DNA from: Alkalispirochaeta sp.
GTDB taxonomy: Bacteria > Spirochaetota > Spirochaetia > DSM-27196 > Alkalispirochaetaceae
Direction of reading: 5' to 3'
DNA length: 64,000 nucleotides
Assembly (NCBI GenBank): GCA_965242725.1
Contig: CBDESZ010000006.1
Span: 76,831-140,830 of the forward strand
Notes under the pieces: generated by a model
Database searches by the model: none
Seen by the model: the letters and a program-made list of their open reading frames with translations, nothing else
Told to the model about the DNA's origin: nothing
Shown here: one piece after another, positions 14,698 to 32,097 of the stretch
How the letters are laid out: every line of letters starts with the position of its first letter
How positions within the stretch are numbered: the stretch's first letter is position 1
Program-made: the position numbers and the translations under genes

Positions 14698-15330
14698 TTA
14701 AGGATAGGCCGTAATACGTTTTATGATGTCCTTCCAGAGATTTGTCACTTCGATATCGCGAAATCCCGCCCGGCGAAGATTATCCACGGTTCGGCGGTTG
14801 ATGTTTGCCCCATAAAGATGGAGTGGAAGAGGGTTTAGAACGTCCATAAGAGGACCGAGTATCGGGCCTTCACTGCGAACGTGCTCGAGCATGAGCACCT
14901 TACCGTCCGGTTTGCATACACGGTGAATCTCTTTGAGACCGGCTACGGGAAGTGGTACCGAGCAAAACACGCATGTCGAGACAACCGTATCGAACGTATT
15001 GTCGTCAAAATCGAGGTGCTGTGCATCCATTTCCAGGAGCGTTACGTTAGATAGGCCATGCTGCGCTTTTCGGTCGGCTGCACGTGCAATCATCGCCCGG
15101 CTGAAATCGATCGCCGTGACCGAGACGTCCTTCGGGTAGTAGGGAAGGTTTTTACCCGTACCGACTCCCACTTCAAGAACTGCACCTTTCGCGAAACTCA
15201 ACAATTCTTCGCGCCACGACGACGCCATCCGCTCCATCGGGTTTTCTAATAGATCATATACGGGAGCGATTCGGTCGTACCGTTGTTGGATTTTGTTAAT
15301 TTGTTTTGTCATATCATGTACCTTAGTCAA
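14698..15330 (-). CDS. Class I SAM-dependent methyltransferase, close paralog of 763..1428
   Basis: Long identical peptide blocks shared with the first copy (VLEVGVGTGKNL, LNPLPLHLYGANINRRTV). Confidence 0.85.
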   Translation of the reverse strand: MTKVHDMTKQINKIQQRYDRIAPVYDLLENPMERMASSWREELLSFAKGAVLEVGVGTGKNLPYYPKDVSVTAIDFSRAMIARAADRKAQHGLSNVTLLEMDAQHLDFDDNTFDTVVSTCVFCSVPLPVAGLKEIHRVCKPDGKVLMLEHVRSEGPILGPLMDVLNPLPLHLYGANINRRTVDNLRRAGFRDIEVTNLWKDIIKRITAYP

Positions 15331-15518
15331 AGTTTCTTTTCACGCGCCTGCTTCCCGAACATCTTAAATATAACGCTATGGTATGTATGAGAATTGACGG
15401 CGATATTACAGTTTGATGAATTGTTTTCTCCGGACGAAATACAGTTGCCTCGTTTTGCTGTTGCCATTCGATGCCTTTGTTGGTTACGTTAGGATGTCGT
15501 AGACTACGGGGGTATGGT

Positions 15519-15797
15519 ATGATGAAAGAAGAACAGAGGGAAAAAGTACGGAACAGGTTACGCCGGATTGAAGGACAGATTGCCGGGATTGGTCGTATGA
15601 TTGATGATGACCGATACTGTGTCGACATTCTCAACCAAACGTCGGCCGTCATCGCGGCGATCAGGAACGTTGAGAATATCGTAATGGAGAACCACTTGAA
15701 CACATGTGTCGTCGATGCGATTCGGAGCGGAGATCCTGAGGAACAACGCCTGAAGACGACCGAAATTATGGATGTGCTTGGCAAGTATCGGAAGTGA
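15519..15797 (+). CDS. csoR: Second CsoR-family repressor
   Basis: RLRRIEGQ..RYCVDILNQ..ENHLNTC; near-match operator TACG-GGGGTAT-GGTA at 15505-15519. Confidence 0.88.
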   Translation: MMKEEQREKVRNRLRRIEGQIAGIGRMIDDDRYCVDILNQTSAVIAAIRNVENIVMENHLNTCVVDAIRSGDPEEQRLKTTEIMDVLGKYRK

Positions 15798-15827
15798 AGA
15801 TATTCGCGGGGGCGCGAAACAGATAGA

Positions 15828-16472
15828 TTATCTACCGTCGCGGAATTTCACATAGAGGCGGCGCAGGGCAAAAATCGCGACTGAAACGCCAATTCCCATC
15901 AGTGACAAACGTATCCAATCGTTTCGGGCAAGTGCACTGCCCATGGAGAGAATGACAAAGGCAAAGGGTGTCATACCGATAAGGCTGGCGAGAGCGTAAG
16001 TGCGGAAGGAGACCGCTTTGGTCAAACCAAGCACGTAACTTGGTATCTCCACGGGAAATATCATCCGTATAATGACGATCGCCAGAAAACCCGTGTCCCG
16101 GGGTATCCTGTTCTCCCATTCCTGCAGTCTCTCCGGGGAAACCAGTTTTACCAGAACCGGTCTGCCAAGATACCGAGCGATGAGAAAAGCGATGACGGCA
16201 CCGATCCACCAGCCAAGGATGCTCAGGATACCTCCTATGGTAATACCCCATGCCGCTGCCGCTATGGGTATCAGTGGCATGGAAGAAAGGGGAAGGACCA
16301 CGATCGCCGCGGCCGTCACGGCTACATAGATCATCGCCGTACCTACGGGGTAGTCGATGGCGTACTGGGCGATGACGGAAACCAACAGCGGAAAATATTG
16401 AAACGAAAACAACAGACCCGAGGCGATAAGCAGGGCGACAAGTACTCGTACAAGCAGAACCGGGAGTCTCAT
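15828..16472 (-). CDS. TVP38/TMEM64 (VTT/DedA-like) membrane protein
   Basis: G..IAFLIARYLGR, IIRM..P...SYVLGL; start at 16472 overlaps the upstream stop. Confidence 0.8.
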   Translation of the reverse strand: MRLPVLLVRVLVALLIASGLLFSFQYFPLLVSVIAQYAIDYPVGTAMIYVAVTAAAIVVLPLSSMPLIPIAAAAWGITIGGILSILGWWIGAVIAFLIARYLGRPVLVKLVSPERLQEWENRIPRDTGFLAIVIIRMIFPVEIPSYVLGLTKAVSFRTYALASLIGMTPFAFVILSMGSALARNDWIRLSLMGIGVSVAIFALRRLYVKFRDGR

Positions 16473-16972
16473 TTCTTCCTCCGGAAGACTCCCCAAAAAA
16501 CCAATGCAAGTACCGCAACAAATATGAGCAAATGGTATACCCGTACATGGATTGGTCGGTGAAGGATATGTCGGTCCGGGGAAAACCAGGGAGACCACCG
16601 GTCGGTAGTTATACCCGGGGCCATTATGGTGTTGTTCCATTGCGGAATGGTACCGTCCATTTCAAGGTAGTGGCGGGCAAAACGTATATGGACGGCCATG
16701 TTTCGCGGTGAGCCGCGGCCGCCCATTATGTCGTTTAACCACTTGTGCCAGTCCGGGTCATCTACAATGGCACCCATGATTTGGAAACCGAGTTCTTCCA
16801 TATCCGCCGGGGATACCAGGTCGGGGTCTATGTCACCCGGTCTGCGTACCCCCTGTTCTTCCATGATGCGGGCGGTGATTTCCATAACCGATTGTTCATC
16901 GGGAAAAAGGGAAAGTGCCGGGAGTACAAACAGGAGCAGAACGAAGACGGTTAATCGAGAACGACTGTGCAT
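16469..16972 (-). CDS. Third member of the HEWM-MMGG exported family (no SHOCT)
   Basis: IDPD.V....MEELG..IMGAIVDD..WHKWLNDIMGGRGS....VH....HYL aligns by eye with the 156 and 11725 proteins. Confidence 0.65.
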   Translation of the reverse strand: MHSRSRLTVFVLLLFVLPALSLFPDEQSVMEITARIMEEQGVRRPGDIDPDLVSPADMEELGFQIMGAIVDDPDWHKWLNDIMGGRGSPRNMAVHIRFARHYLEMDGTIPQWNNTIMAPGITTDRWSPWFSPDRHILHRPIHVRVYHLLIFVAVLALVFWGVFRRKK

Positions 16973-17087
16973 CTGTAATCAGTATATCAGCGACCTTGAG
17001 CCGCAGGTGTCGAACCTACGATTTTTCGGACTTTGTTTGTATAATGTAGAAGAAATGAACAAGCAAAAAGGAATTTGGAAGCATCTA

Positions 17088-17779
17088 TAGGTAGCAGCTG
17101 GTATCTGAAATAGTTCAAATTTATCATTATTAAAACTATCTGACTTTTCAACACCAAGAATATCAATAAATGATTCATCATTTTTTTCACTAGGCAAATA
17201 GACTGATATCAGAGGAGAATCAGTCACCTCTCCCCATCTACCATTTGTCAAATTCCAAAGCTCTTGGTATTCATCTGTACATACGTATTCTTTCCAGAAT
17301 TTAGGGCCTTCTTTAAAAAAGTTTTCATGTGTAAAGTTTTTACTCTTCCCTACCAATTCAAAAGACGGTTTTTCGACTATTTTATAATCCATATCATTTC
17401 CTCCTTTGATTTCGATATGAAAAGAAACACGATTATATGCCGATAATTTAACCTCAGAGCTGCGCACTTCTCGTGGATTAATACCATGCATATTCCGGAA
17501 TGCTCTAGTAAACGCATTTGGTGATTCATAACCATATTTCAGAGCGATATCAATGACTTTTTCATTCCCAGCAGCGAGATCAGAGGCTGCTAAATTCAAT
17601 CTTCGTCGTCTGATATATTCAGCAGGCGTAATCCCAATGATTGCATAAAACATTCGCTGAAAATGAAATGATGAACAATTGGCTATCTTTGCTACTTCTG
17701 AAATCAGTAGTTCATATTTAATATTATCTTCAATATAATTGATTGCCATATTCATTCTTTCAGACCATTCCATTATCAT
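17088..17779 (-). pseudogene. AraC/Rob-family regulator with GyrI-like domain, 3'-truncated; AT-rich cassette gene
   Basis: AINYIEDN, FHFQRMF, YIRRRRL, IALKYGYESPNAFTRAF; family-like sequence stops at 'IPAATY'. Confidence 0.8.
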
Positions 17780-17927
17780 GCTTCCTTGTTATGCATAGTA
17801 ATAAATTTTAATTCTATGATCTCACCTTTTTATGCGATGCGATGTGTGTTTATACATTTCCAAACTGGCACGGATGCCAGTTTGCCTATATATAATCCCT
17901 TCTCCCAAAAAAGGGCGGGGTAATTGC

Positions 17928-17990
17928 ATCTAACGTCCTGCGAATAGCCGAAGTTACCAAGGCATTCACCTGTCAACAATGTCCTTAGCT
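17928..17990 (-). other. Truncated attC (R' side only) at the head of the araC cassette
   Basis: Minus strand ..CGCAGGAC-GTTAGAT core site and a small hairpin; no matching R''/L'' arm. Confidence 0.4.
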
Positions 17991-18026
17991 TTCTGTAAAC
18001 CATCTCCATGATCAGTACCTGTGTCC

Positions 18027-18125
18027 ACATAACGATGAGTTGAGTTGTTTGGCGTTAATCGGCGCGGTTGTTGCAGAAGCAAGAACCGTGACGATAGCCA
18101 AATCAACTCGAACGTGGTGTTATGT
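18027..18125 (-). other. attC site (99 bp) closing the higBA cassette
   Basis: Minus strand R'' ACATAAC, L'' GTTCGAG vs L' CTCAAC (extra C), TTGATTTGGC vs GCCAAACAA (extra A), R' GTTATGT. Confidence 0.88.
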
Positions 18126-18198
18126 GACTCAGGTTTTTGAGGTGGACCCCTTCGTCAAGACCACTCAACGAGGGTCTTAAGCTACTCCATTGCCCCGC

Positions 18199-19026
18199 TC
18201 AGGCTGCAGCCTGAGCGCCGCGCCGGTTGTATGCCATATTCGGCGTCTTCCCATCCACGGATGAGTGAGGGCGCCGTCCGTTGTACATCGTGATGTACTC
18301 ATCGATTCGTTGCCGGGCTTCTGCCGGTGATTGGTAGTCGTTGAGGTACACCTCGTCGTACTTGATCGTCCGCCAGAACCGCTCGATGATTACATTGTCG
18401 AGAGCGCGGCCCTTGCCATCCATACTGATCTTCACGCCCGCATCTTTAAGGGGCTGCAGAAACGCCGGAGAGGTGAACTGTACTCCCTGATCGGAGTTGA
18501 AGATCTCCGGCGGCCCATACCGTCTGAGAGCCTGCTCGAGCACTTCAATCGCGGACGATTTGTCGAGAGTCAGGCTTACGTCCCAGCTCAACACCTTCCG
18601 GGAGAACCAGTCAATGATCGCCGTCAGGTACACGAACCCGTCTTCCAGCCGAATATAGGTCGTATCGATCGACCACACCTGGTTGGGACGCTCAATCGAC
18701 AACCCTCTCAAGAGGTACGGGTATACCTCGTGTTCCGGCGGCAGGCGACGGTGATAGGTGTGCGGAAACACCACACGCAGCATCATGAGCCGCATCAGAC
18801 GCTGTACGCGCTTCCGGTTGACCGTCCAACCCTCCAGACGCAGGGCGTCACGGATCATTCGGCTGCCCCACGTGATATGCGCGGTGTGGAGCTCATCGAT
18901 CCGTTTCATAAGCTGATCGGTGTCCCGATCGACCTTCTGCGGTTGGTAGTACAGCGTTGATCGGTTCAGGCCCAACAGCATGCACTGCTCACGGACTGAC
19001 AGTCTTTCGTGATCCGGCTCGATCAT
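18199..19026 (-). CDS. IS3-family transposase OrfB (DDE)
   Basis: WSIDTTY, IDWFSR, FNSDQGVQF, DN..IERFW. Confidence 0.92.
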   Translation of the reverse strand: MIEPDHERLSVREQCMLLGLNRSTLYYQPQKVDRDTDQLMKRIDELHTAHITWGSRMIRDALRLEGWTVNRKRVQRLMRLMMLRVVFPHTYHRRLPPEHEVYPYLLRGLSIERPNQVWSIDTTYIRLEDGFVYLTAIIDWFSRKVLSWDVSLTLDKSSAIEVLEQALRRYGPPEIFNSDQGVQFTSPAFLQPLKDAGVKISMDGKGRALDNVIIERFWRTIKYDEVYLNDYQSPAEARQRIDEYITMYNGRRPHSSVDGKTPNMAYNRRGAQAAA

Positions 19027-19331
19027 TTCCCGAAGTTCGGCAGCTGATCGACTCCCAGTTTTTTTTTCAGGAAATCGATCTGTACTTGCTGGTGACCGAC
19101 CTTCCGGTATAGCTCATCTCGTTCGGCCTCAGTGGCCTGTTGCTCGTCATCATGCTTGCCGGCAAAGATGTCCGGCCCATGATCCATCAGCTCTTTCTTC
19201 CAGCGATGGACCTGCGTCGGATGAACGCCATATTCCTCGGCGATCTCCGTCACGCTGCGGTCAGCCTTGTAGGCCTCCATCGCAACCTTGAACTTGGTCG
19301 CCTTGTTCCATGTTGTTCGTCGTCGTCCCAT
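19023..19331 (-). CDS. IS3-family OrfA (HTH)
   Basis: KFKVAMEA..IAEEYGVHPTQVHRWK; ends LKKK at the slippery site. Confidence 0.88.
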   Translation of the reverse strand: MGRRRTTWNKATKFKVAMEAYKADRSVTEIAEEYGVHPTQVHRWKKELMDHGPDIFAGKHDDEQQATEAERDELYRKVGHQQVQIDFLKKKLGVDQLPNFGK

Positions 19332-19429
19332 GGTGCAAAACCTCCGATTCCCATTCCAACGCAATCTTCATGCGTTGTCCAGTTTTCGGGGTCCACCATA
19401 TTTCGTACAAAAGAATCGAAGCAAGAGCG

Positions 19430-19732
19430 CTAATTCGTCTTGGCGAGTACTCGCGGGATCTTTCTCAAGTCTTCTTTCAGCCGTTCCTTTTCATCGCGAA
19501 GATCATACTCATCCTGGATACCCATCCAGAACTCCGCCGAGTTTCCAAAATACGCCGATAATCGAAGCGCGGTGTCCGCAGTAATACGCCGATTACCTTT
19601 TAGGATCTGCGATATTCGAGTCGCCGGCATCCGGGTGTCCTGGGCAAGTCGGTACGCACTGATTCCCATCGGCTCGAGGAATTCTTCTTTCAATATTTCT
19701 CCGGGAGTAACATTGGGAATTTCGTCCATCAC
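19430..19732 (-). CDS. higA: HigA antitoxin
   Basis: PGEILKEEFLEPMGIS.YRLA..ITADTALRL..FG.SAEFWM..Q..YDL. Confidence 0.92.
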   Translation of the reverse strand: MMDEIPNVTPGEILKEEFLEPMGISAYRLAQDTRMPATRISQILKGNRRITADTALRLSAYFGNSAEFWMGIQDEYDLRDEKERLKEDLRKIPRVLAKTN

Positions 19733-19964
19733 ATCCTCCTAGTGGTAATCCACGATTTCGACGTCGTGAGCCGATCCGTTTTCCCAACGAAAACAGATCC
19801 GCCATTGATCATTAATCCGCACGCTATGCTGACCTGATCGACCCCCCGATAATGATTCCAGTCGATTCCCTGGTGGTATTCGGAGATCATTCAGATCTCG
19901 GGACCGATGAATCATGACGAGTTTGCGATAGGCGGTTTTCTGAATCGGTTCGGGGATTTTTTTT

Positions 19965-21297
19965 GGTTCATCGCAGATTAGCGGGGAATAGTCAGTAGAA
20001 GGAAATAGCAAGATGGCGGCCCACCGGGTACTGTTTGAGTCGACCAAGATCCAAACACCGGAGGACCACCATGCAAGCTATTCACCAAGATATCGACCTT
20101 CTGGGAAACTGGGAAGGCTACCGCGTTCGCGGTATCAGGGTTCCTGTGAACCAGAATCGAAAGATCCGTGTTGAACTCCATCCGAAACACGGGTGGTGGG
20201 GTGGGTGCAGCCGGTGTGGATGTACCGGCTGCGACTACCACGATCGTACAACTCGGGTAGTCCGAGACCTCCCGGTATTCGGCCAAGCGGTTGAACTTCG
20301 TGTCCTCGTACGACGGGTGATTTGTCCGGTATGTGGCCCCAGCCGTGAATCGATCCCCTGGTTGGATTCGTATGCACGCGTCACGAGACGGTTGGCCGAT
20401 ACCGTCTGCCGGATGGCAGAGATCATGACGATCAAGGACGTTGCGAAGACGTTTCTGCTTGCCTGGCATACGGTGAAGAACATCCACAAACGGTACCTAA
20501 CGCACCTCCTTGAGCCGGTTGATCTCAACGGGGTCACCCAGCTTCTGATCGATGAGTTTGCTATCCAGAAAGGGCATCGATACGCGACGGTAGTCGTCGA
20601 TGCAGTGCGAAAACGGGTACTGTGGGTCGGAAGGGGCCGCTCACGAGCCTCTATTCGTCCGTTTTTTGAGCTGCTCGGGGACCAGCGACACAACATCAAA
20701 GCGGTCGCACTCGATATGAGTAGCGCCTACATCAATGAAATCGCCGAACAGTGTCCACACGCGCAGGTGATCTTTGATCACTTTCACGTCATCGCCCGCT
20801 ACGGTCGCGAGGTCATCGATCGCGTCCGCGTTGATGCCGCCAACCGATATCGACATGACCCGATACAGCGGAAGCTGGTCAAAGGGTCTCGTTGGCTCCT
20901 ATTACGAAACCCCAGCAACATCACCCGACCGGAAGACCGGCAACAACTCGACGAGCTGCTTGAAATCAACAAGGAACTATCGCTGGTGTACATCATGAAG
21001 GAGCACCTCAACCATCTCTGGCGGTTCGAAGATCAGATTACCGCTCGTGCGTGGTGGCATCAGTGGTATCGCATGGCGATCAACAGCAACATCGACGCGT
21101 TAATCAAGTTCGCTCGGAATCTATCCGTTCACGTGGAGGGCTTGTTGGCACACACAAGATACCGGCTGAATACCGGTGTCCTCGAAGGTATGAACAACAA
21201 GATCAAGGTGATCAAGCGGGTCGCCTTTGGCTTCCGGGATGACGAATACTTCTTTCTTCGCATCCGTCACGCATTCCCCGGAGTTCGACGATGAACC
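19965..21297 (+). mobile_element. ISL3-family element (1333 bp)
   Basis: IRs GGTTCATCG..GGGGAAT at both ends; 8-bp T8 target duplication; absent from copy 2 (offset difference 1341 = 1333+8). Confidence 0.93.
20071..21294 (+). CDS. ISL3 transposase
   Basis: CxxC zinc finger, IDEFA, ALDMS, DHFHV, EGMNNKIK.IKR.AFGFR; GGAGG before ATG20071. Confidence 0.92.
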   Translation: MQAIHQDIDLLGNWEGYRVRGIRVPVNQNRKIRVELHPKHGWWGGCSRCGCTGCDYHDRTTRVVRDLPVFGQAVELRVLVRRVICPVCGPSRESIPWLDSYARVTRRLADTVCRMAEIMTIKDVAKTFLLAWHTVKNIHKRYLTHLLEPVDLNGVTQLLIDEFAIQKGHRYATVVVDAVRKRVLWVGRGRSRASIRPFFELLGDQRHNIKAVALDMSSAYINEIAEQCPHAQVIFDHFHVIARYGREVIDRVRVDAANRYRHDPIQRKLVKGSRWLLLRNPSNITRPEDRQQLDELLEINKELSLVYIMKEHLNHLWRFEDQITARAWWHQWYRMAINSNIDALIKFARNLSVHVEGLLAHTRYRLNTGVLEGMNNKIKVIKRVAFGFRDDEYFFLRIRHAFPGVRR

Positions 21298-21370
21298 TTT
21301 TTTTTTGAAAACTCTTGCCGCCAGATTCTCGACGTCTCTTTGTCCTTAAATGACTCGATCACCTAGGCTA

Positions 21371-21414
21371 ATAATAACGCAATACATCATTGACGTAAAG
21401 CGTCATTATGACGC
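21371..21414 (-). promoter_or_regulatory. higBA promoter and palindromic operator
   Basis: Minus strand TTTACG-N17-TATTAT ending 8 nt before the GTG start (near-leaderless); IR GCGTCAT-T-ATGACGC at 21400-21414. Confidence 0.6.
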
Positions 21415-21477
21415 GAGAGCGTACCTTCGGTTTCTGCGTCAATCGCGTATTGCAATTTGGCTTCGCGTTCCGGAGTC

Positions 21478-21554
21478 ACATAACGACCGCATCACCTGCG
21501 CCCTCGCAGGAGCGAAGCGACGAGAAGGCGTCTGGTGAATGCGCGATGTTATGT
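21478..21554 (-). other. attC site (77 bp) immediately 5' of the ISCR-like transposase gene
   Basis: Minus strand R'' ACATAAC, GCATTCACC vs GGTGATGC (one extra base), CCAGACGCC vs GGCGCAGG (extra A), R' GTTATGT. Confidence 0.85.
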
Positions 21555-21616
21555 TGCGCACGGTGACCACGCCCCCTATCTGAAGCAGGAAGCTCGCTAC
21601 GCCCGTATGTGTTTAT

Positions 21617-22954
21617 GTGAGCACGGCAATCTCTGTCGCGACCGCGGTAAGGAATCAATACGTTCCCCGCGGCCGCAACGAGCTCCATACTATATTCGAG
21701 CGGCACTTCGGCGACTTCTGCGCCCAGTACGATGAGAAGTACGCCGCCACTTACGGCCGGTATCGCCTTGAGCGCATCCAGCAGATCGGGGAGCGGTTTT
21801 GCACCTGTGGCGACTATCTCCAGGGCGTCGCGCGGATACGCTGCACGAATCCCGAATGCGGACACGATTACTTCCGACCGTTCTCCTGCAAGGGGTTTTA
21901 TCTTTGTCCGTCCTGCAGTCGCAAACGAACCATCCTGTTCGCTGAACACCTGACAGACGAGGTCCTGCTCAAGCTGCCGCATCGGCAGTTCGTTTTCACG
22001 ATGCCCAAAGCACTCCGGCCGTTCTTTCGCCACGATCGACGCTTGTTCGCCGAGGTGTCTCGCCTAATCTACGACATCCTCCGTGATTTTTACCAAGAGG
22101 CCGCGGGCAGACCGCTGCTCACCGGCATGGTCATCGCGCACCAGACGTTTGGAGACATGCTCCGCTGGAACCCTCATTTCCACGCCATCGTTTTGGAGGG
22201 CGGGTTTGATGATGAAGGTACGTTCTTCTACATCCCGTTCTCTGGGCTCCAGTCGATGGTCGAGGTATTCCGGCGTCGGGTGATCAAGCTGGTGGTGCAA
22301 CGGGAGCTCCTGAACGATGACTTCGCTCGAAACCTTCTATCCTGGAGACACTCCGGTTTCAGTATCGACAACAGCGTACGCATACTCGACGAGTCCTCCC
22401 AGGAAAGCCTGGCGGAGTACATAGCACGGCCGCCGATCTCGCTGAAGAAGATCCGCTACGAGCCGTTCAAAGGGAAGGTCCTATTTCACACCAAGTACTC
22501 GGAGTATTTCAAGCAGAACTTCCATCTGTTCGATGCCTTAGACTTTTTGGCCGAGTTAACGCAGCACATCCCGCCGAAACGTCTACAACTGATTCGGCGT
22601 TACGGGCTCTATGCCTCCCGCACAAAGGGACGGTGGGCACAGATGCCATGGGTTGTGGAACGAGCACCGGACGGATGGAAGACCGACCATCAATGCGGTG
22701 ATGTCGCAGATGATCCTGGCTACGAGCCATTGTCGGATGGGGATGAAGAGGTCGATATCAATGCGAGCAAACGCGCCTGGGCCCGACTACTCGCGAAGGT
22801 CTATGAGGTCGATCCGATGGTCTGCCCAAAGTGCGGTGCGGACATGAAGGTGATCGCCGTCATCGAGGATCCCGACGAACTGAAGCGTATCCTCCGACAT
22901 CTGATCAAGATCGGGCGGTCCCCACCGGGATTCGATCCCGATCGCCTTAACTGA
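21617..22954 (+). CDS. IS91-family (ISCR-like) HUH rolling-circle transposase
   Basis: Zn domain (CGD..C..C..FSCK...CPSC), HRQFVFT, NPHFH (HUH), HSGFS, single Tyr SLAEYIARPP, RYG, WARLL..CPKCG..ILRHL. Confidence 0.92.
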   Translation: MSTAISVATAVRNQYVPRGRNELHTIFERHFGDFCAQYDEKYAATYGRYRLERIQQIGERFCTCGDYLQGVARIRCTNPECGHDYFRPFSCKGFYLCPSCSRKRTILFAEHLTDEVLLKLPHRQFVFTMPKALRPFFRHDRRLFAEVSRLIYDILRDFYQEAAGRPLLTGMVIAHQTFGDMLRWNPHFHAIVLEGGFDDEGTFFYIPFSGLQSMVEVFRRRVIKLVVQRELLNDDFARNLLSWRHSGFSIDNSVRILDESSQESLAEYIARPPISLKKIRYEPFKGKVLFHTKYSEYFKQNFHLFDALDFLAELTQHIPPKRLQLIRRYGLYASRTKGRWAQMPWVVERAPDGWKTDHQCGDVADDPGYEPLSDGDEEVDINASKRAWARLLAKVYEVDPMVCPKCGADMKVIAVIEDPDELKRILRHLIKIGRSPPGFDPDRLN

Positions 22955-23174
22955 CTGCTCTCTCGGCCTCGCGCCGTGGCATCCGTGTGTCCGTCTTACG
23001 CCCCAATCGTTTCCGTAACAGCCCTGATCTGTCCGTTTGGACGTTTGCGTACTCGAGTGGGCGGCAAGTGCGCCGCCGGCGCACGGCGAACCGCGATTCT
23101 CGTCGTGATTTCGTCGAGTCTTGCGCCTACCGCCCGTTTTCCGGTTGCGCTCGCGGATAACTCTTCCTACTACT
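22955..23174 (+). other. oriIS-like end
   Basis: About 220 bp non-coding tail ending AACTCTTCCTACTACT (TTCCTA resembles IS91/ISCR oriIS); identity with copy 2 stops here; IR GTGCGCCG/CGGCGCAC at 23068-23084. Confidence 0.75.
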
Positions 23175-23238
23175 GGTGCTTCTCGAGTCGGAGGGCATGC
23201 GCCTCGAGGATGTCGTCGCCGAGCTCGCCTCGCGCTGA
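23171..23238 (+). pseudogene. hisE: 3' remnant of phosphoribosyl-ATP pyrophosphatase (hisE/hisIE)
   Basis: Translates LVLLESEGMRLEDVVAELASR*, matching the HisE C-terminal pattern; only 21 codons. Confidence 0.6.
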
Positions 23239-23331
23239 CCGACTGACCGGCCGTCATCGCGGCGGGCCTGTTGCGGACGACCTTCCGTCGGAACGGGCGA
23301 CCCGGCGTACGGCGCGCGCCGTCCCCGGTCG

Positions 23332-24693
23332 TTACGGCGTGGCCGTCGGACCGGCAGGTTCGGCGTACTCCATCGGCCCCTCGTCGGGGTTGTACGAACT
23401 TTCGGCGTCCTGAACGGCGCCGGGCGGCAATGGAACGTCCCCCGCCAGGAGGGGGTCTCCGGTCCGACGCATCCACGACTCCAGTCGTTCCTCCAGCGCA
23501 GCCCGTACCTCCGCGTACCCCGGGTCATCGGCGACGTTCACCCGCTCGAGGGGATCGATGTTGAGGTCGTAGAGCTGCACCGCGTCCAGGGGAAAATTCC
23601 TCACCCCCGCGTCGAAGAGGTGGTGCTTCGACGCGCTGCCGTCGATGTTGACGGGAACGAGGCGGGGCGGCGTGAGAAATCGCTTGATCAGCTTGTGGTC
23701 CCGGGTACGGATGGCGCGCTGTGGCTCGTACCGGGCGTGGTACGTCACTTCCGCGAACAGCTCGTCCCGGATCTGATCGCGCTCACCCGTGAGGAGGGGA
23801 AGCAGGGAGCGACCCTCGAGGTTCGCCGGCGCGGGGATCCCCGTCAGTTCGCAGATCGTCGGAAAGATGTCGAGGTGCGAGACGAGGCCGTTGACGACCG
23901 ATCCGCGGGCGGGGTTGCCGGGATAGTCGAGGATGAGGGCGACGCCGATGCCCGTATCGTAGAGGGTGCACTTGTTGTAGGGGTACGCCACCCCGTGGTC
24001 CGTCGTGAAGATGATGATCGTCTGCTCCCGGAGCCCCGCGGCGTCCAGGGCGTCCAGCACGATGCGCACGCAGCGGTCGACGACGCGGGCGGAGGTGACA
24101 AAGCCGGCGTAATCCTCCCGCGCTTCGGGGGTGTCGGTGACCTCCCGGGGAGGCAGGAGGCGGTCAGGCTCGACCCCTTCCTCGACGGGGGGAAACTCCC
24201 GGTGCGTGTTGAACATACCGAAGGAGAGGAAGAAGGGGGAGTCGCTTTCACCCGCCTTCGTGAGGTACGCCGCGGCGCTCCGGGCGTTGGAGAGGTCGTA
24301 CTCGACGGTGTCGAAGTCGTGGGCGTTGGCCATCGAAATCCCGAAGTCGTCGAGGACCTCGTCGTATCCGATCGCGTCGACCGGCTCCGCCTCGTGCTGG
24401 ATACCCGACAGGGCCGTTCGGTAGCCCGCGGCCGTGCAGTGGCGCACGAGATGCTCCTCGTAGTCGTAGAGCCGGAACCCCCGGTGAGCGAGGCCGAGCA
24501 TTCCCGCGCGGTGGGGGCTCGTGCCGGTGAGGAGTCCCGCCCGACTGGGGGAGCACGTCGGGGCGGTGCTGTACGCCTGGCGGAAGAGGGTTCCCCGCCG
24601 GGCCAGCTCGGTGATTGCCGGGGTGCCGACGGCGTACCCGTAGGGGTCGAAGTACCGCCCGCTGTCGTGCGTGTGAAGGTAAAGAATGTTCAT
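23332..24693 (-). CDS. Cys-type sulfatase
   Basis: MNILYLHTHD start, CSPSRAGLLTG formylglycine motif, TTDHG, LYDL..DP.E. Confidence 0.9.
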   Translation of the reverse strand: MNILYLHTHDSGRYFDPYGYAVGTPAITELARRGTLFRQAYSTAPTCSPSRAGLLTGTSPHRAGMLGLAHRGFRLYDYEEHLVRHCTAAGYRTALSGIQHEAEPVDAIGYDEVLDDFGISMANAHDFDTVEYDLSNARSAAAYLTKAGESDSPFFLSFGMFNTHREFPPVEEGVEPDRLLPPREVTDTPEAREDYAGFVTSARVVDRCVRIVLDALDAAGLREQTIIIFTTDHGVAYPYNKCTLYDTGIGVALILDYPGNPARGSVVNGLVSHLDIFPTICELTGIPAPANLEGRSLLPLLTGERDQIRDELFAEVTYHARYEPQRAIRTRDHKLIKRFLTPPRLVPVNIDGSASKHHLFDAGVRNFPLDAVQLYDLNIDPLERVNVADDPGYAEVRAALEERLESWMRRTGDPLLAGDVPLPPGAVQDAESSYNPDEGPMEYAEPAGPTATP

Positions 24694-24737
24694 CGTGTGT
24701 TGACCTTTCATGTGTGGTGTCACCGCGGTGCTCCACA

Positions 24738-25571
24738 TCAACCCTTGATGGCGCCGAGGGTGAGCCCCCGGACGATGTGGCGCTGCGCGTAGGTAACGAG
24801 GACAAACGCCGGCACCGCCGCGAAGAGGGACGCCGCCGCCATCTCTCCATACTCCGTCCGCCACTCCTGGACAAATCCGGCGATGCCGATCGGAACGGTC
24901 ATCCCGTTGGGGGTACTCGTGAGAACGAGGGCGAGGAGAAACTCTTTCCAGGAGAAGAGGAAGACGAGAATCATCGCCGCCGAAATGGCGCCCTGGACGA
25001 CCGGAAGGATCACCGCCCAGAGGGTCTGCAGCTCGGACGCGCCGTCGATCATCGCCGACTCCCGCAGTGCCGGGGGTACCGCGGCAAACCCGTCCTGGAG
25101 GATCCACAGCCCGAGAGGAATATTGAAGAGGGTGTGCGCTACGATTACCGCCGCCGGGGTGTCGTAGATCCCGACGGATCGGGCAAAGAGATACAGCGGC
25201 GCGGCGAAGATGATCGGCGGGAGGAGGTGGACGAGGAGCAGCCACAGGGTGACGACGCTCTTGGCCCCCGCACGCCAGCGAAACTGGGCGAGACTGTACG
25301 CGGCGGGACCGGCGATGAGCAGCACCAGGACCATCGTTCCGCTGGAGGAGATGACGCTGTTGATGGTCAGGCGCAGAAAGTCGCTGCGAACACCGTCGAA
25401 GAGGCGCTGATAGTTGATCAGCGTCGGCTCAAAGACAAAAGAACCGCTCATGATGTCCCGGGTAAACTTGAGGGACGTCGCTCCCGTGAAGAGCACCGGG
25501 ACGACGAGGATTATCAGCCACAGTGAAACGATGGCAACGGTAAAGAATCGGGCACGTCGGGTTGAGTTCAT
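24738..25571 (-). CDS. Carbohydrate ABC transporter permease
   Basis: EAA motif LRESAMIDGAS; multiple TM helices. Confidence 0.9.
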   Translation of the reverse strand: MNSTRRARFFTVAIVSLWLIILVVPVLFTGATSLKFTRDIMSGSFVFEPTLINYQRLFDGVRSDFLRLTINSVISSSGTMVLVLLIAGPAAYSLAQFRWRAGAKSVVTLWLLLVHLLPPIIFAAPLYLFARSVGIYDTPAAVIVAHTLFNIPLGLWILQDGFAAVPPALRESAMIDGASELQTLWAVILPVVQGAISAAMILVFLFSWKEFLLALVLTSTPNGMTVPIGIAGFVQEWRTEYGEMAAASLFAAVPAFVLVTYAQRHIVRGLTLGAIKG

Positions 25572-25586
25572 GCTTCCTCCTCTGCC

Positions 25587-26462
25587 CTACTCGCGGTCGA
25601 GCCGCGCAAGAACAACGCGATAGACGATGATGATCGACAGGACGATTACCGACAGGAGGATTGTGAGAAACGATCCGTAGCCGATGCGGTTCTGCACGAA
25701 GTACACCTTGTAGATGTACAGGTTGAGCACCTCCGTCGCCGTTCCCGGGCCACCGTTGGTGAGGAGGTACACCTGATCGAATACCTTGAACGCGAAGATC
25801 AATCGCAACATCAGTGCCGTGGCGATCGAAGGGCGAAGGAGTGGCAGAATCACGTGACGACGGATCTGGCGCGACGAAGCGCCATCGACCTGGGCAACCT
25901 CAAAGAGCTCGTGAGGGAGAGATTCGAGACCGGCGTAGACGATCAGAAAAACGAAGCTCGTCCAGTGCCAGATGTCGACGATGATGATCGTCAGCAGCGC
26001 GAGGTTGGGGTCCGCGTTCCACGTCGGACCCTGGACGCCGACGAGAGACAGAATCATGTTGAAGAGACCGAAGTTGTAGTCGTACATGAGCCGCCACATC
26101 GACCCGATGGCGATCGGCGGAATCAGGATCGGGAAGAGCAGGAGCGTCTTCGCGAGGACCGTCGTTTTGCGGAGGCTGCCGATCATCAGCGCCAGTGCCG
26201 TTCCCAGGATACCCTCGACGATGACGACCACCGCAACGTAGATGAAGGTGTTGCGCAGGGCGATTCCGACGACCGGGTCGGCGATCGCGGTACGCGCGTG
26301 CTTGAGACCGACAAAGGTCCGGGTGACCTGCGATCCCGAGAATGAGACTTCGGAGACACCCATCTGGACGAGCTGGATGATGGCGTAGGTCGAGAAGACC
26401 ATGAGGAAAAGAAAAAGCGGCACCATGGCCCGATACTTGAACGGCATCGATATCTGCTGCAT
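25587..26462 (-). CDS. Carbohydrate ABC transporter permease
   Basis: EVAQVDGAS, FDQVYLLTNGGPG. Confidence 0.9.
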   Translation of the reverse strand: MQQISMPFKYRAMVPLFLFLMVFSTYAIIQLVQMGVSEVSFSGSQVTRTFVGLKHARTAIADPVVGIALRNTFIYVAVVVIVEGILGTALALMIGSLRKTTVLAKTLLLFPILIPPIAIGSMWRLMYDYNFGLFNMILSLVGVQGPTWNADPNLALLTIIIVDIWHWTSFVFLIVYAGLESLPHELFEVAQVDGASSRQIRRHVILPLLRPSIATALMLRLIFAFKVFDQVYLLTNGGPGTATEVLNLYIYKVYFVQNRIGYGSFLTILLSVIVLSIIIVYRVVLARLDRE

Positions 26463-26562
26463 GGACGGTCCTTTGTTTCGTCGAAGATTTCGTCGAAATG
26501 GCGCGGAAGAGGGCCTGTGCTCTCTTCCGCGCCGGGATGGGTCAGTTCTCGGAGCGGAGAGT

Positions 26563-27891
26563 CTACTCGACGATCACCGCATTGTAACCGGCACCGTCGA
26601 GGACGGCGAAGATCTCTTCGGCGGCGTTCTGCATCGCTTCTGCCGGTGACTCCTGGCCGATCACGGCGTAGCCGATCTGCCGCTTGATGATGTCGTTGAT
26701 CTGGGCACTCTCGGGGATCCGCAGCTGGGGCGAGATGTACGGGGTGGATGCGGCAAACCCTTCCATCCACCATCCGATTTCGGGGTCACTCGAGAGGGTG
26801 TCGTAGGTGTCCTGTCGCACCGGGATCGCTCCCGCCTGGGTGTACGCGATCTGGTTTTCCGCCGTGAGGAGATAGTCAAGAAAGTCCACGGCGGCCTGTT
26901 TGCGGTCGTCCGGAATATTGTGGGGCACTCCCATCGTCCAGATGCCGGTCATCGTGGTGCGGGAGTCCGCCGTCCGGCCCGGGACGGGCACGGCGCGGAT
27001 CTGGCCGGCGACGATCGACTCTTCCTCATTGTCAAAGGCGGGGGCTGCCGCGCCAACGACGATCGCCTGGGCGAGACGTCCGCTCTGCAAGAGTCCCATG
27101 AGCTGGGCCTGACCGATGTCGGCGAAGTTCGCCGGTCCGTACTCGGCGGTCATGTCGAGCAGGTACTCGAGGGCTTCGATCGACTCGGAGCTTCCGATCA
27201 GTACTTCCCAGACGCCGCTGTCGGCGTTGTAGATCACGTAGCCACCACCGAAGCTCTCGAAGACGGCGTTGGTTTCCCACTCCGGCGGGTTGGTGCGCCA
27301 GGCAAATCCGAGAACGTCATCACTGCTCACCGCTTCGGCGATCGCACGGACCTCGTCCCAGGTGGTGGGCGGATCGAGTCCCGCCTCTTCGAGGAGATCG
27401 GCGCGGTAGAAGAAGAGCTGGATGTTTCCATTGACCGGAACGGCGTACATCGTGCCGTCCGGAGAGGCCACGCCCGTCTCGGGGTCCCAGAACGCGGCGT
27501 TACCATAGTCGATGACGTTCTCGTCCAGGGTGAAGGATGGTCTGATCTCGGTGATCGGCGTCAGCCAGTCGTTGGCGTAAAACTCGAGCATCCACTGCTC
27601 GTTGAGGTTGATCAGGTCAAACTCGCTCTCACCCGCGGTAACGGCGTTGCGCGACTTCGGAAGCATCGCCGGAAAGGGGTTGACGTCGAGACGCACCGGA
27701 TTGCCCGTCTCCTCGATGTACTTCTCGACGATCGCCTCGAAGCCGGGCAACCACGGGGACGTGTTGATCAGAATCGAGATCTCCGGATTGGTCCCCTCCG
27801 GGGCATCTCCTTCCGGTTGGCCGCCGGCCATCGCGAGACCCGTTATCAGGGTCAGGGCAACCAGGGTGGCAAAAAAGCAACGTATACGCAT
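26563..27891 (-). CDS. Carbohydrate ABC solute-binding protein
   Basis: Signal 'MAGGQPE'; YAVP....FFYRADLLEEAG..PTTWDE. Confidence 0.88.
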   Translation of the reverse strand: MRIRCFFATLVALTLITGLAMAGGQPEGDAPEGTNPEISILINTSPWLPGFEAIVEKYIEETGNPVRLDVNPFPAMLPKSRNAVTAGESEFDLINLNEQWMLEFYANDWLTPITEIRPSFTLDENVIDYGNAAFWDPETGVASPDGTMYAVPVNGNIQLFFYRADLLEEAGLDPPTTWDEVRAIAEAVSSDDVLGFAWRTNPPEWETNAVFESFGGGYVIYNADSGVWEVLIGSSESIEALEYLLDMTAEYGPANFADIGQAQLMGLLQSGRLAQAIVVGAAAPAFDNEEESIVAGQIRAVPVPGRTADSRTTMTGIWTMGVPHNIPDDRKQAAVDFLDYLLTAENQIAYTQAGAIPVRQDTYDTLSSDPEIGWWMEGFAASTPYISPQLRIPESAQINDIIKRQIGYAVIGQESPAEAMQNAAEEIFAVLDGAGYNAVIVE

Positions 27892-28037
27892 TACCGTATC
27901 CTCCTTGTAGATCGTGGCCGATAAATTCGGTCGTCTTCAGTGTCGAACGAGAATCCGGTTATGTCAACCTGTTTCTTTACCGGTTGCTATACGTGTATCG
28001 AAACCGTTGACAGCAGAGATTGCGCCTCGTACAGTAG

Positions 28038-29249
28038 ATGGCGGGGAGACGCGTGAAAACGAATCAGCACGAGGTCCGAGTGGCCAACACCAGAAAGATA
28101 CTCGATCTCCTGCGCCAACAACCGGCTCTCACCGTGCGGGAGTTGTCGACGGAGACGCGGCTCAGCCGACCGACGGTGGCCAAGATTCTCGCGCTCCTCA
28201 CCGGGGCAGGGGTCGTCAGCGATCGGGAGACGGGAGAGTCGACCCTCGAGGGCGGCAAGCCTCCGCGACTCTTCTCCCTCAACGCCGAGGGAGGGCACCT
28301 CATCGGAATCCACTACTCGGGCAACCACTTCTTCGGCAGCCTCGTCGATCTCCAGCTTCGTGTCATGACCTCCGTCGCCCAACCCGTGCCGGCGGAGATT
28401 CGGGCCAGCGAGCTCGTCGATCTGCTGGACCAGATGGTTCGGGGGCTGTTGGTCAGTTCCGATGTCACCGGGGGGCGCTGCCTCGGCATCGGGATCGGCA
28501 CGCCCGGTGTCACCGACCTCGGGCTTGGCGAAGTGGTCTTCTCCCCGCACCATCCCGGCATCGGCGAGCACCTCGCCCTGCGGGACCTCCTGGCGGAGCG
28601 TCTCGAGTACATCGCACCCGTCTTCGTCGACAATTCGATCCGGTTTCGCACGATCGCCGAGCAAACGATGGGCCACCTCCGGGGCGTGCGGGACGGAGCG
28701 GTGATCTACTGTGACGACGGCCTCATTTCGGGACTGCTCCTGGACGGGCAGATCCGGCGGGGCCCCAACAGTCTGGCCGGCTCGATCGGACACATGACGA
28801 TCAACCCCGGCGATCCGGTACAGTGTGCCTGCGGCGGATACGGCTGCTGGGAGATGCAGGTTTCTCCGGACCGGCTCGTCGCCGAGATGCGCGCCCGCCT
28901 CACACGGCGTTCCCCGAAGGATTCTCCCGGTGAGGAACTGACGGTTGCGACGGTACTCGATCGCGCCGACGAGGGTGATCCCGACGCGGTAGAGCTCATC
29001 GAAGGCGTCGCCCACTGGTTTGCCGTGGGAATCCACAACATGATTCTCGCCTACGATCCCGAGACGATCGTCATCCAGGGGGTCTACGCAAGACCCGACA
29101 GCCACTTCTTTCGATCCCTGACGGCGCAGATTACCGACGTTTCTCTCGTTCGGGCACCCTTTCAGACCCGGGTGGTCTGTTCGTCCCTCGGAAAGGACGC
29201 CGCCAATATCGGCGCGGCGTCCTACTCCCTGTCCATGGCGCTGGCGTGA
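28038..29249 (+). CDS. ROK-family transcriptional repressor
   Basis: N-terminal HTH, GIGIGTPG, GSIGH..C.CG..GCWE. Confidence 0.9.
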   Translation: MAGRRVKTNQHEVRVANTRKILDLLRQQPALTVRELSTETRLSRPTVAKILALLTGAGVVSDRETGESTLEGGKPPRLFSLNAEGGHLIGIHYSGNHFFGSLVDLQLRVMTSVAQPVPAEIRASELVDLLDQMVRGLLVSSDVTGGRCLGIGIGTPGVTDLGLGEVVFSPHHPGIGEHLALRDLLAERLEYIAPVFVDNSIRFRTIAEQTMGHLRGVRDGAVIYCDDGLISGLLLDGQIRRGPNSLAGSIGHMTINPGDPVQCACGGYGCWEMQVSPDRLVAEMRARLTRRSPKDSPGEELTVATVLDRADEGDPDAVELIEGVAHWFAVGIHNMILAYDPETIVIQGVYARPDSHFFRSLTAQITDVSLVRAPFQTRVVCSSLGKDAANIGAASYSLSMALA

Positions 29250-29266
29250 CGAGGGGTGCCCATTGT

Positions 29267-29413
29267 GCCACGTCGCCGGGCGCGCGGATTGATGGACTGG
29301 TGGCCGATCATGGCGAGACGGTCGTCGCTACGCCGCCGGGCGCGTGGGTTTATGGACTGGTGGCCGATCATGGCGAGACGGTCGTCGCCACGTCGCGGGG
29401 CGTGTGGATTGAT
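29267..29413. repeat. 60-bp tandem repeat, about 2.4 copies, intergenic
   Basis: Core ATGGACTGGTGGCCGATCATGGCGAGACGGTCGTCGC recurs at exact 60-bp period. Confidence 0.85.
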
Positions 29414-29426
29414 CGGGTACCCGCGG

Positions 29427-29798
29427 TCAGTACAGCCGGCCACCCTCGGGCACCGGCGCATCCGGCGCGATGAGAACGACGGCACCCGTCTCATCGGGAA
29501 CCCCGAGGGTCAGACACTCCGACTTGAAGCCGGCGACGCGCTTGGGCGGCAAATTGGTGACCGCCAGGACCTGACGGCCCGCGAGCTCGTCGGGGGTGTA
29601 GCGATCGGTGAGCTGCGCGCTCGACCAGCGGACGTCACCGCCGCCGAAGTCGATGCGCAGTTTGATCGCCGGAACCCGCGCTTCCGGGAAGGGGATCGCT
29701 TCCCGGACGGTGCCCACCCGGATCTCTACCTGACCGAATGCGTCCCACACGGAGGGAGCCGGTGATTCCCCGTCGATGGCAGGCGTCGCCCCGGTCAT
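29427..29798 (-). CDS. csaA: CsaA/Trbp111-like tRNA-binding OB-fold protein
   Basis: IRVGTV, SSAQLT..Y, VTNLPPK.VAGFKSECL.LG. Confidence 0.85.
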   Translation of the reverse strand: MTGATPAIDGESPAPSVWDAFGQVEIRVGTVREAIPFPEARVPAIKLRIDFGGGDVRWSSAQLTDRYTPDELAGRQVLAVTNLPPKRVAGFKSECLTLGVPDETGAVVLIAPDAPVPEGGRLY

Positions 29799-29847
29799 CC
29801 CGGCGTGGCGCGGATCGCCACCCCTCGGGTTCGACGTACCCATCCGA

Positions 29848-30984
<1,137 letters not shown>

Positions 30985-31049
30985 TTACGGGAAGACCGCC
31001 CGGACCGACGGGTCCCCGTCACGGAAGTCCTCGCGCGGGAAGTCCGTCC

Positions 31050-31733
31050 TCAGGGGAAGACCGTCCGGAGCTCCATCAGGACCACCTCCTCACTGCGATA
31101 CCCTCCCCAGATCGTGAGGACGCTCTCTTCCGGCGTCTCGCCGGAGATGTAGTAGCCCTTGAGAAGGCCGAGGTTGTCCAGGAGCATGTCCTCAAACTCG
31201 TTGTAGCTGCCGGCGCGACGGTTTCGGACGATTGAGTCACCCGTCAGGGTTCCTTCCTCGAAAGTGAGGCTCTCCCGGGGCGAGGCGGTGTCGATGCGAA
31301 AGGTGTAGGAGCCCTCGATGGTGTTCTGCGGACCACGGACGTGGATCGGACCGCTCCCGCTCGTGTTGCCGGGGTCGTGGGTCGCGCTCGGGCGGAGTTC
31401 GATCCAGACGTCCCGGGTCGGGGGAACGAGTCGGCGCATATCTCCGTAGAGGCGGACGAGCTCCCACCGCGTCTCCACCAGGGGCGCGTGACCGAGGGGC
31501 GCCGGCTCCTCCGGTTGCGGCAGGGGTTCCGCCGGCAGCTCCGGCGGGATCGGCTCCGGTGGAGGTGCGGGAAGGGCAATCGGGGGCGCGACCGGGGGCG
31601 CGGGTATCCCAAAGGGGAGGGGCTCCGGGTCGCCGGCACAACCGGCGAGGAGGATCATCGCACCGATCACGATCGCTCCCGCCAGAGTGCTCCGGGCACC
31701 GGGGGGCATCCGGCGCGAACTGCGTCTCTTCAT
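31050..31733 (-). CDS. Hypothetical lipoprotein with Pro-rich linker (possibly META-like)
   Basis: Lipobox LLAGC; Pro/Glu-rich linker; LVETRWELV. Confidence 0.55.
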   Translation of the reverse strand: MKRRSSRRMPPGARSTLAGAIVIGAMILLAGCAGDPEPLPFGIPAPPVAPPIALPAPPPEPIPPELPAEPLPQPEEPAPLGHAPLVETRWELVRLYGDMRRLVPPTRDVWIELRPSATHDPGNTSGSGPIHVRGPQNTIEGSYTFRIDTASPRESLTFEEGTLTGDSIVRNRRAGSYNEFEDMLLDNLGLLKGYYISGETPEESVLTIWGGYRSEEVVLMELRTVFP

Positions 31734-32082: not shown

Positions 32083-32097
32083 GCGGGGAGTGAGCCG

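Follow-up and report, generated by a model that had tools for sequence, protein, structure and literature searches.

Integrase-less attC cluster beside an ISCR-type transposon in Alkalispirochaeta sp., and a duplicate pointing to one-ended rolling-circle transposition

How does a cluster of integron attC sites, with no integrase gene beside it, come to stand directly against a rolling-circle transposase? The question is raised by a locus of Alkalispirochaeta sp. in contig CBDESZ010000006.1 (assembly GCA_965242725.1, positions 76,831 to 140,830), the whole 64-kb stretch of which was analysed and is called the window. It belongs to a 4.34-Mb genome, probably a metagenome-assembled one, with a completeness of 91.8%, a CheckM-type contamination of 2.58% and a GC content of 57.7%. 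The system in question consists of two attC sites (attC_1 and attC_2), a higBA toxin-antitoxin cassette between them and an ISCR-like element of the IS91 family joined to attC_2. The movement of resistance genes linked to integrons is attributed to ISCR elements, and how they come beside integrons is unsettled. The explanation judged best for the locus as a whole, and considered fairly probable, combines three parts: (i) the end of a CALIN, that is, a cluster of attC sites lacking an integron integrase; (ii) an ISCR-type element that targets attC; and (iii) a duplicate left by one-ended read-through.

The attC sites and the missing integrase

Both attC sites have their bottom strand on the plus strand of the window. 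The attC consensus is formed by inverted cores, RYYYAAC ... GTTRRRY, 50-150 nt apart; ACATAAC and GTTATGT are found as core sites in both, GTTATGT being one position off the consensus. attC_1 (18027-18125) is 99 nt long and reads ACATAAC GATGA GTTGAGTT ... AACTC-G-AAC GTGGT GTTATGT. attC_2 (21478-21554), of a 77-nt type designated T-short, runs from ACATAAC to an inner core GTTATGT which overlaps the left end of the ISCR-like element, and ends, as the first-pass annotation of the bare sequence had observed, 62 bp before the GTG start codon of the transposase gene at 21617. An extra G on the 3' arm is a mark of the attC bottom strand. The extrahelical base of attC_1 is seen in AACTC-G-AAC against GTTGAGTT, and for attC_2 the two extra bases are both located in the 3' arm of the plus strand.

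The sites have been assessed with a covariance model. Relatives of both were located by BLAST of the genome on contigs C6 and C16; with six attC sequences aligned by MAFFT the consensus fold was poor (8 pairs), and the model was rebuilt on four long attC sites of the genome, none of them adjoining the transposase, with attC_2 left out. In the alignment of this model, R1, the sites share a single consensus hairpin; it has 38 pairs, 12 of which show compensatory changes. Compared to R1, attC_2 scores 33.1 bits (E 1.5e-6) on the plus strand and 10.8 bits on the minus strand, and a strand preference within the window is also given by scores of 114 vs 39 bits. attC_1, itself a member of the R1 alignment and already recognised in the first reading, has a DNA fold of -31.6 kcal/mol (z -6.7). 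Across the genome R1 reveals a nine-site array on contig C5, on a single strand, as well as sites on C16 and C6. The C5 array (C5:124210-140702, nine R1 matches) displays complementarity at cassette boundaries, and no integrase was found on that contig or in the genome. An Rfam scan of positions 15000-25000 returned no attC family, only four sub-threshold chance matches. A half attC formerly proposed near 17928-18000 was not borne out, as this segment has no R1 match at E up to 10 and its fold does not stand out from shuffled sequences (z +0.4).

The attC sites are more than chance resemblances, and three hallmarks of integrase-processed cassettes are present: (i) the right extension of attC_1, GTTATGTGACTCAGG, is complementary at 14/15 positions to the left extension of attC_2, and complementarity of neighbouring extensions is also found within the C5 array; (ii) on contig C6 an attC_1-like and an attC_2-like (T-short) site bracket an MNT/HEPN pair, both on the same strand; (iii) in X1 and X3, two runs from other studies, the higBA contig matches as far as ACATAAC at 41927, the outer core of attC_2, and immediately beyond it enters another attC-like body. 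A copy of attC_2 without the transposon, 95-97% identical, is located at C6:4790-4866. The strand preferred by the model, the orientation of the cassette genes and the crossover positions agree; the top strands of the attC sites therefore lie on the minus strand, as had been stated at the outset.

The absence of intI, also claimed earlier, extends to the whole genome, in which the best TIGR02249 match reaches 77 bits vs a cut-off of 265. IntI above the cut-off was identified in 16/41 genomes searched, this genome being counted among the 41 and having none. The intI gene and attI site which lie next to the array in a complete integron are not found here. Since an attC cluster is present and intI is lacking in the genome, the locus falls under the definition of a CALIN. 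The outer (R') cores of the attC sites are retained, and an integrase acting in trans could still shuffle the cassettes, judging from the new neighbour that starts exactly at the R' core; the cassette exchange seen in other samples fits such editing by IntI in trans. The idea that cassettes would be protected in transit is speculation.

In cassette order, read on the minus strand, attC_2 is followed by the higB-higA cassette, closed by attC_1, and attC_1 by an araC-family regulator gene (16979-17779, minus strand), rightly described in the first reading as AT-rich (35% GC). Its product is recognised by Pfam HTH_18 (4e-22) and HTH_AraC (1.5e-13) and has an effector-binding C-terminal part, the Cass2 match (0.0012) being below the cut-off. 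No attC was detected after araC, R1 being without a match at 15000-17000. A search for sequences pairing with the outer extension of attC_1 or with the inner one of attC_2 returned self matches only, so the araC "cassette" has no detectable attC of its own.

The transposon and its junction with attC

The ISCR-like element occupies 21547-23174 on the plus strand and begins with the left end (TG)TTATGTTGCGC. Its transposase gene (21617-22954, plus strand) encodes a protein of 445 amino acids with the domains Zn_Tnp_IS91 (PF14319, 5e-13) and Y2_Tnp (PF04986, 6e-22). An H-F-H motif has been identified, and its H187 and H189 are invariant among the aligned homologues. The corresponding tyrosine motif of IS91, itself outside the alignment, is YxxxY. 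Here the lone conserved tyrosine is Y268 in SLAEY, present in 7/7 aligned proteins including that of ISCR28; position -4 is occupied by S, A, N or R and position +4 is never a tyrosine in any of the seven, which upholds the single tyrosine noted at first sight. The protein is classed on these features as a predicted ISCR-type single-tyrosine HUH transposase of the IS91 family, and its best plasmid relatives, among them ISCR28, are 40% identical.

The homologues comprise 79 loci (387 kb), mostly from Spirochaetota metagenome-assembled genomes. The consensus TTTTCCTAT is found at the right end in more than 25 of them, followed by a variable tetranucleotide (CATT, TATT, TACT, GATT, CGTT and others). 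The element studied here ends with CTTCCTAC and TACT at 23174, 220 nt beyond the stop codon. In locus L028, a 100% identical copy in another assembly, homology is lost at the same right end (43617+2), and this edge is therefore regarded as the end of the transposon. In L022, L058, L056 and L069 the last 20-40 nt of this origin (oriIS) end are tandemly duplicated. In the IS91 family the two ends differ, oriIS lying downstream of the gene and terIS upstream, and inverted repeats and target duplications are lacking. Here the probable left end was set at (TG)TTATGT by comparison of copies and overlaps the inner (R'') core of attC. It is conserved in homologues with and without attC as (TG)TTATGT-GGCG, and reads (TG)TTATGT-GCGC... 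in this element. Neither TACT nor a long palindrome was found in the 62-nt leader (21555-21616), and the earlier remark that TACT is missing between attC and the gene is correct. The accompanying remark that no terIS, the termination end, is visible is not upheld, as comparison of the copies gives the leader a conserved left end.

The frequency of the attC junction was counted in 37 loci which include the N-terminus and at least 150 nt upstream; L091, with 100 nt upstream only, was excluded. On both strands of all 79 loci R1 gives 10 matches at E<=0.1, all on the transposase strand, 9 of them at 43-65 nt before the transposase start and 1 at 150 nt. With filters off (17 loci) L020 and L022 are added, and the junction is present in 11/37 loci. 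Arranged by identity to the transposase, an upstream attC is found in 11/28 loci at 42% or more and in 0/9 at 37% or less. Custom hairpin scripts, in which a closed minimum-free-energy stem was demanded, undercounted the sites (2/37 and 7/37); the counts rest on R1 and on reading of the sequences. By eye, L038 contains a degenerate attC copy, and L023 has two further weak attC matches upstream, so that in this locus, too, an array adjoins a transposase gene of this kind. The attC bodies found at the junction number at least four, namely the 77-nt T-short type, a 73-nt variant and types of 136 and 147 nt, and the junction reads ..TGTTATGT(G/T)GCG in every case except L057 (GTTATAT). In ISCR28 the site and junction read GCCTAAC...GTTAGGT GGCGCC; on both plasmids pSY153-MDR and pS68 the order is attC-GTTAGGT-GGCGCC, with the gene 75 nt on. 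By comparison of these loci, the attC junction is a clade-wide trait of the transposons.

In the Salmonella plasmid CP082410.1 (L098, 1405-1520) the end of an ltrA group II intron coincides exactly with the attC/ISCR28 junction, between GT and TAGGTGGCGCC (that is, between GT and TAGGT); ending at such a point is the usual behaviour of attC-specific introns. The ISCR28 megablast boundary at query position 113, considered as a transposon end, proved to be a group II intron insertion.

Two readings of the junction have been weighed. Site-specific insertion of the element at the foot of a folded attC is held to be somewhat likely. The terIS-side end, (TG)TTATGT-GCGC..., is precisely fused with the inner (R'') core of attC_2, where it supplies a core-like heptamer. 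Four observations favour targeting. Firstly, L022 and L023, which are 82% identical at the nucleotide level (compared over 400 nt upstream and the first 300 nt of the gene) and near-identical downstream, carry unrelated attC bodies at the same inner position, a swap that an integrase cannot explain because it acts at the outer core. Secondly, intact copies without attC keep the left end NNTT-ATRT-GGCG..TGAAGCA (L033, L058, L025, L047, L060, L031, L030 and L034). Thirdly, the inner heptamer is GTTATGT in 12/13 transposon-adjacent attC vs 3/14 other attC of the genome, which indicates that these bases belong to the transposon. Finally, T-short sites without the element stand in cassette contexts: C6:4790, which closes the MNT/HEPN cassette, G002:C178, and G014 at 2178563.

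The strongest alternative, although considered unlikely, is that the attC-like hairpin is the element's own terIS, so that the mobile unit would consist of attC, gene and oriIS, the "solo" copies would be relics, and a docking site for integrase would be carried along. Homology between independent copies begins exactly at the outer heptamer of attC in L027 (99.9%), L043, L051, L052, L022, L084, L089, L059 and L070, and the ISCR28 copies on pSY153-MDR and pS68 have the attC body in common while the outer heptamer differs. The attC is also more conserved than the adjoining 25-nt spacer. The description of terIS as an imperfect subterminal palindrome beside a GTTC-type cleavage site, in PMC13181058, is compatible with an attC top strand ending in GTTA. 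Further observations weigh directly against insertion at attC. T-short sites in 61 genomes, placed by coordinate comparison, mostly stand beside a transposase or its remnant (14 adjoin vs 4 that do not, a count from which matches on contigs without a transposase match or at a contig end are excluded). These sites stay about 90% identical while the transposase drops to 67% or less, which fits an attC travelling with the element, and a single attC body is retained among ISCR28 copies at 81-100% identity. In attC-adjacent copies the right flank does not supply the remainder of the R'' core, so simple insertion into attC lacks the proof of target continuity; L019 and L021 form the exception, with the oriIS-side CGTT and the flank AGGA together making GTTAGGA. 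The exact cleavage points are blurred as well, TGTTA being common to occupied and empty sites.

Against a terIS made of attC stand the unrelated attC bodies of L022 and L023, the intact attC-less copies and the T-short sites without the element inside cassettes, all given above. In addition, the tetranucleotide of the outer boundary (GTTA on the transferred strand) is unlike the oriIS flanks (AATG, AGTA, AACG), whereas the inner tetranucleotide AACA and the araC pseudo-terminator AGTA resemble them. Under targeting, the homology that starts at the outer boundary can be explained by integrase shuffling at the outer core, which is seen for the higBA cassette.

The duplicated block

The cluster and the transposon are present twice in the window. 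By self-BLAST, positions 17693-19964 match 39477-41748, and positions 21298-23174 match 41741-43617, both at 100% identity. Copy A (17693-23174, plus strand) starts with TACTTCTG, ends with CTTCCTACTACT and contains the 5' end of araC, attC_1, an IS3-family element, higA, higB, attC_2 and the ISCR-like element, together with an ISL3-family element. Copy B (39477-43617, plus strand) is 4141 bp long and without ISL3, and the two copies differ solely by ISL3 and its 8-nt duplication. The 4141-bp block thus carries both attC sites, and on the right it stops precisely at the oriIS end. On the left it begins within araC, 87 nt in, with TACT (edge TACT|TCTG), the tetranucleotide that also follows CTTCCTAC at the origin end; araC is whole in copy A alone and truncated in copy B. 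A reading of attC plus transposon as an integron cassette was rejected: the right edge is the oriIS end, and no attC/RYYYAAC boundary lies beyond it in copies A, B or L028.

Evidence on junctions and depth was drawn from Logan contigs of the probable source runs, run parts without contig cover not being counted. A 4195-nt contig of run X15 spans the junction 39476/39477 (by 475 nt), and another contig, of 6177 nt, takes in the last 30 nt of the oriIS end and runs on from 23175. In X1 and X3 the left part of the block is present, with 85 further contig letters left of 39477, taken as araC, and almost nothing of segment X, the DNA between the two block copies. Because these contigs extend left of the block, without IS3 and nearly without X, copy A is regarded as the older context and IS3 as a recent arrival.

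According to PMC13181058, a target tetranucleotide lies beside oriIS in the IS91 family and a related one marks the terIS cleavage, and termination fails in 1-14% of events, with co-mobilisation of DNA past terIS. The duplicate bears what we infer to be the signature of one-ended rolling-circle transposition, in which the array itself moved. Replication would start at oriIS, 220 nt downstream of the gene, with the minus strand displaced leftwards. Its normal stop would be the left end; here read-through would have taken in attC_2, higBA (with IS3 already inside) and attC_1, and would have stopped in araC at a TACT identical to the oriIS flank, leaving a 4141-bp block in two copies. ISL3 would have entered copy A later. 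Transposition, including one-ended events, is inferred from this duplicate and from the varied insertion contexts of near-identical copies, by analogy with the one-ended transposition of IS91 and IS1294; the duplication and its edges are themselves observed. The first-pass proposal of an integrase-less array moved by rolling circle gains support from the duplication of both attC sites with an edge exactly at oriIS.

Segment X (23175-39476) has a GC content of 67% and contains sulfatase, ABC-transporter, ROK, dehydrogenase, DUF711, transketolase and sugar-kinase genes; its right end falls within a histidine/aromatic ammonia-lyase gene, cut off at profile position 214/466. Its transketolase (35236-37242) has 83% identity to the enzymes of two congeners, against 80% to the genome's own copy (C14:26024-28000). 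As it is closer to the congeners, X is regarded as a piece of a related species' chromosome. Both outer flanks (1-17.7 kb and 43.6-50 kb) consist of metal-resistance DNA of about 55% GC. Within X there are tandem repeats of a 43-nt unit (three copies, 34259-34384) and a 60-nt unit (two copies, 29267-29386). TACT is present at all three joints, and the unit-X-unit layout could come from a second read-through that produced a circle of unit and X, followed by recombination with the resident unit.

A different origin of the two copies, by homologous recombination between elements or by a chimeric assembly in which DNA of a related species, at 67% GC, was placed between two collapsed copies of one mobile block, is improbable. 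In its favour, segment X is foreign in composition, a housekeeping gene is doubled in a version closer to congeners, and the contamination is the 2.58% given above. Two further points for it call for caution: the assembly lacks the 3' half of the lyase gene, other DNA following copy B on its right, and the block depth in the source runs is 1.1-1.4x that of X (4.6-4.8 vs 3.4 in run X16), not twice. The unit-X-unit order could in part be an assembly join through the repeat. Such a chimeric join would alter the long-range order, not the existence of the read-through copy. Against this origin, the joint of the cut lyase with the TACT left end in the truncated araC is bridged by the 4195-nt contig; the block therefore exists in a second context, with an edge that is not a product of homologous recombination. 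The other edge is exactly oriIS, and identical 4.1-kb repeats, one of them with ISL3, are unlike a collapse artefact.

Chance juxtaposition in this genome only, with terIS lost by deletion against attC, would suit a 62-nt leader without TACT and without a long palindrome and is highly implausible, as the survey of homologues for attC within 100 bp of the start, named beforehand as the refutation test, found the junction to recur in 11/37 loci with at least four attC types and in ISCR28, with a conserved leader (motif TGAAGCA, left end ATGTGGCG), and so refuted the one-off reading.

The remaining genes complete the anatomy of the block, of which the first reading had captured the attC sites, higBA, araC and the transposase and had overlooked IS3, ISL3 and the second copy at 39477-43617. 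The minus-strand higBA pair that it proposed is confirmed: higA (19430-19732, minus strand; Pfam HTH_3, 6e-7) is intact, and the C-terminal three quarters of higB (19739-19964, minus strand) match HigB-like_toxin (9e-18, profile positions 18-91). The N-terminal part of higB, 65 nt at 21298-21362, lies on the far side of ISL3. In the copy-B translation a run of nine A in higB (minus strand; 41741-41749 in copy B) sets the N- and C-terminal parts out of frame. The ISL3-family element (19965-21297, plus strand; transposase 20035-21294, Pfam DDE_Tnp_ISL3 3e-65), bounded by 25-nt inverted repeats, splits higB. Its target duplication is T8, read from the 8-nt overlap of the self-BLAST segments, and it entered the same A-run (copy A 19957-19964 and 21298-21306), where the X1 and X3 contigs are two bases shorter. 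A second ISL3 copy, 99.9% identical, is found at C6:4901-6233; in that region (C6:3286-6363, L003) it stands 38 nt from a T-short attC, so that ISL3 is near an attC twice in the genome.

The IS3-family element (about 18135-19400, minus strand) lies inside the higBA cassette between attC_1 and higA, and comprises orfB (18199-19026) and orfA (19023-19364), both on the minus strand, with the Pfam domains rve, HTH_21 and HTH_Tnp_1. Its empty site is given by the X1 and X3 contigs, which join 39918 directly to 41185 (copy-B coordinates); 1266 nt are missing between these points, and the two sides overlap by 3 nt. In the other-study runs the higBA cassette is without this segment, window 39919-41184 (equivalent to 18135-19400), and shows 11 base differences. 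A third attC of the same family (49885-49992, plus strand) scores 119 bits with R1 (match span 49879-49998), being a member of the model alignment; it stands where the GC content climbs from about 55% to 68%, and the 14 kb onward to the contig end are GC-rich, like segment X.

Wider meaning and known systems

A broader proposal can be put forward tentatively: an ISCR clade reaching from environmental Spirochaetota to clinical ISCR28 may use the folded attC as insertion target or terminator, replace the inner core with its own core-like end and leave the attC usable by integrase, while read-through may make mobile integrase-less clusters and attC circles that could be docked by any integron. 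If this is true, two mobility systems based on single-strand DNA are linked, and a possible origin is offered for dispersed CALINs and for ISCR-integron complexes. The locus provides a natural example, from a harmless environmental bacterium, in which a precise, conserved transposon-attC junction is accompanied by a read-through product with two attC and a cassette. With this non-clinical element it becomes testable whether such transposases recognise attC hairpins and whether integrases can take up rolling-circle products, and the locus suggests one route for the spread of integrase-less attC clusters around genomes.

Several parts of this picture are already established: ISCR1 beside the 3' conserved segment (3'-CS), ISCR20 and ISCR28 inside cassette arrays, and read-through of the IS91 type. 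In PMC12772301 attC is treated as a putative ISCR target, and in a 2017 paper (PMC5732528) ISCR20 is placed after sul4 in an array. In the literature searched, with supplements and the source paper of ISCR28 outside its scope, neither the exact junction nor its conservation in different attC types and phyla was found described, nor was a duplicate of an attC cluster formed by read-through; unpublished data of PMC12772301 may contain the junction.

The cluster resembles other CALINs in having at least two attC within 4 kb, in one orientation and with no intI nearby or in the genome, and differs from them in being physically tied to a transposon and duplicated. The closest annotated relative found for the element is ISCR28, the name given in PMC5620268 to the element on pSY153-MDR. 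The transposases share 40% amino acid identity over 95% of the protein, and ISCR28 likewise has a canonical attC, the junction GTTAGGT-GGCGCC, a gene 75 nt on and a right end of the TTCCTATCA type. In contrast to ISCR28 and ISCR20, which occur in class 1 integron contexts, the element described here is chromosomal and is found in Spirochaetota metagenome-assembled genomes, mostly from saline or alkaline samples. Unlike ISCR28, it is without resistance genes and stands beside toxin-antitoxin cassettes of a chromosomal-type array.

Compared to ISCR1, for which PMC6218425 describes an oriIS region of 232 bp downstream of the gene, the 220-nt region of the present element is of comparable length. 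The same source states that ISCR1 abuts the 3'-CS 24 bp after sul1 and that ISCR transposition has never been demonstrated experimentally. In ISCR1 and the complex class 1 integrons, too, constant integron DNA lies on the terIS side and variable DNA past oriIS (PMC6218425). The unit-X-unit layout resembles the duplicated 3'-CS around the variable regions of ISCR1. Complex class 1 integrons are explained by a model of circle formation plus recombination. However, ISCR1 adjoins the 3'-CS and no attC, whereas the repeated flank here is a cassette segment with two attC.

The one-ended products of IS91, IS1294 and IS1294b are alike in their constant oriIS edge, their variable edge past terIS and the recurrence of the tetranucleotide flanking the origin at the point where transfer stops. 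These three elements have two tyrosines. Their targets are GTTC/CTTG, whereas those seen here are CATT/TATT/TACT-like, and the event here is known from sequence alone. Finally, IS1111-attC elements and group IIC-attC introns are mobile elements with a fixed position and orientation in attC (PMC11187229 and PMC3001079). They differ in their machinery, a DEDD transposase with a guide RNA in the former and a reverse transcriptase with a ribozyme in the latter, as against an HUH rolling-circle transposase in the present element.

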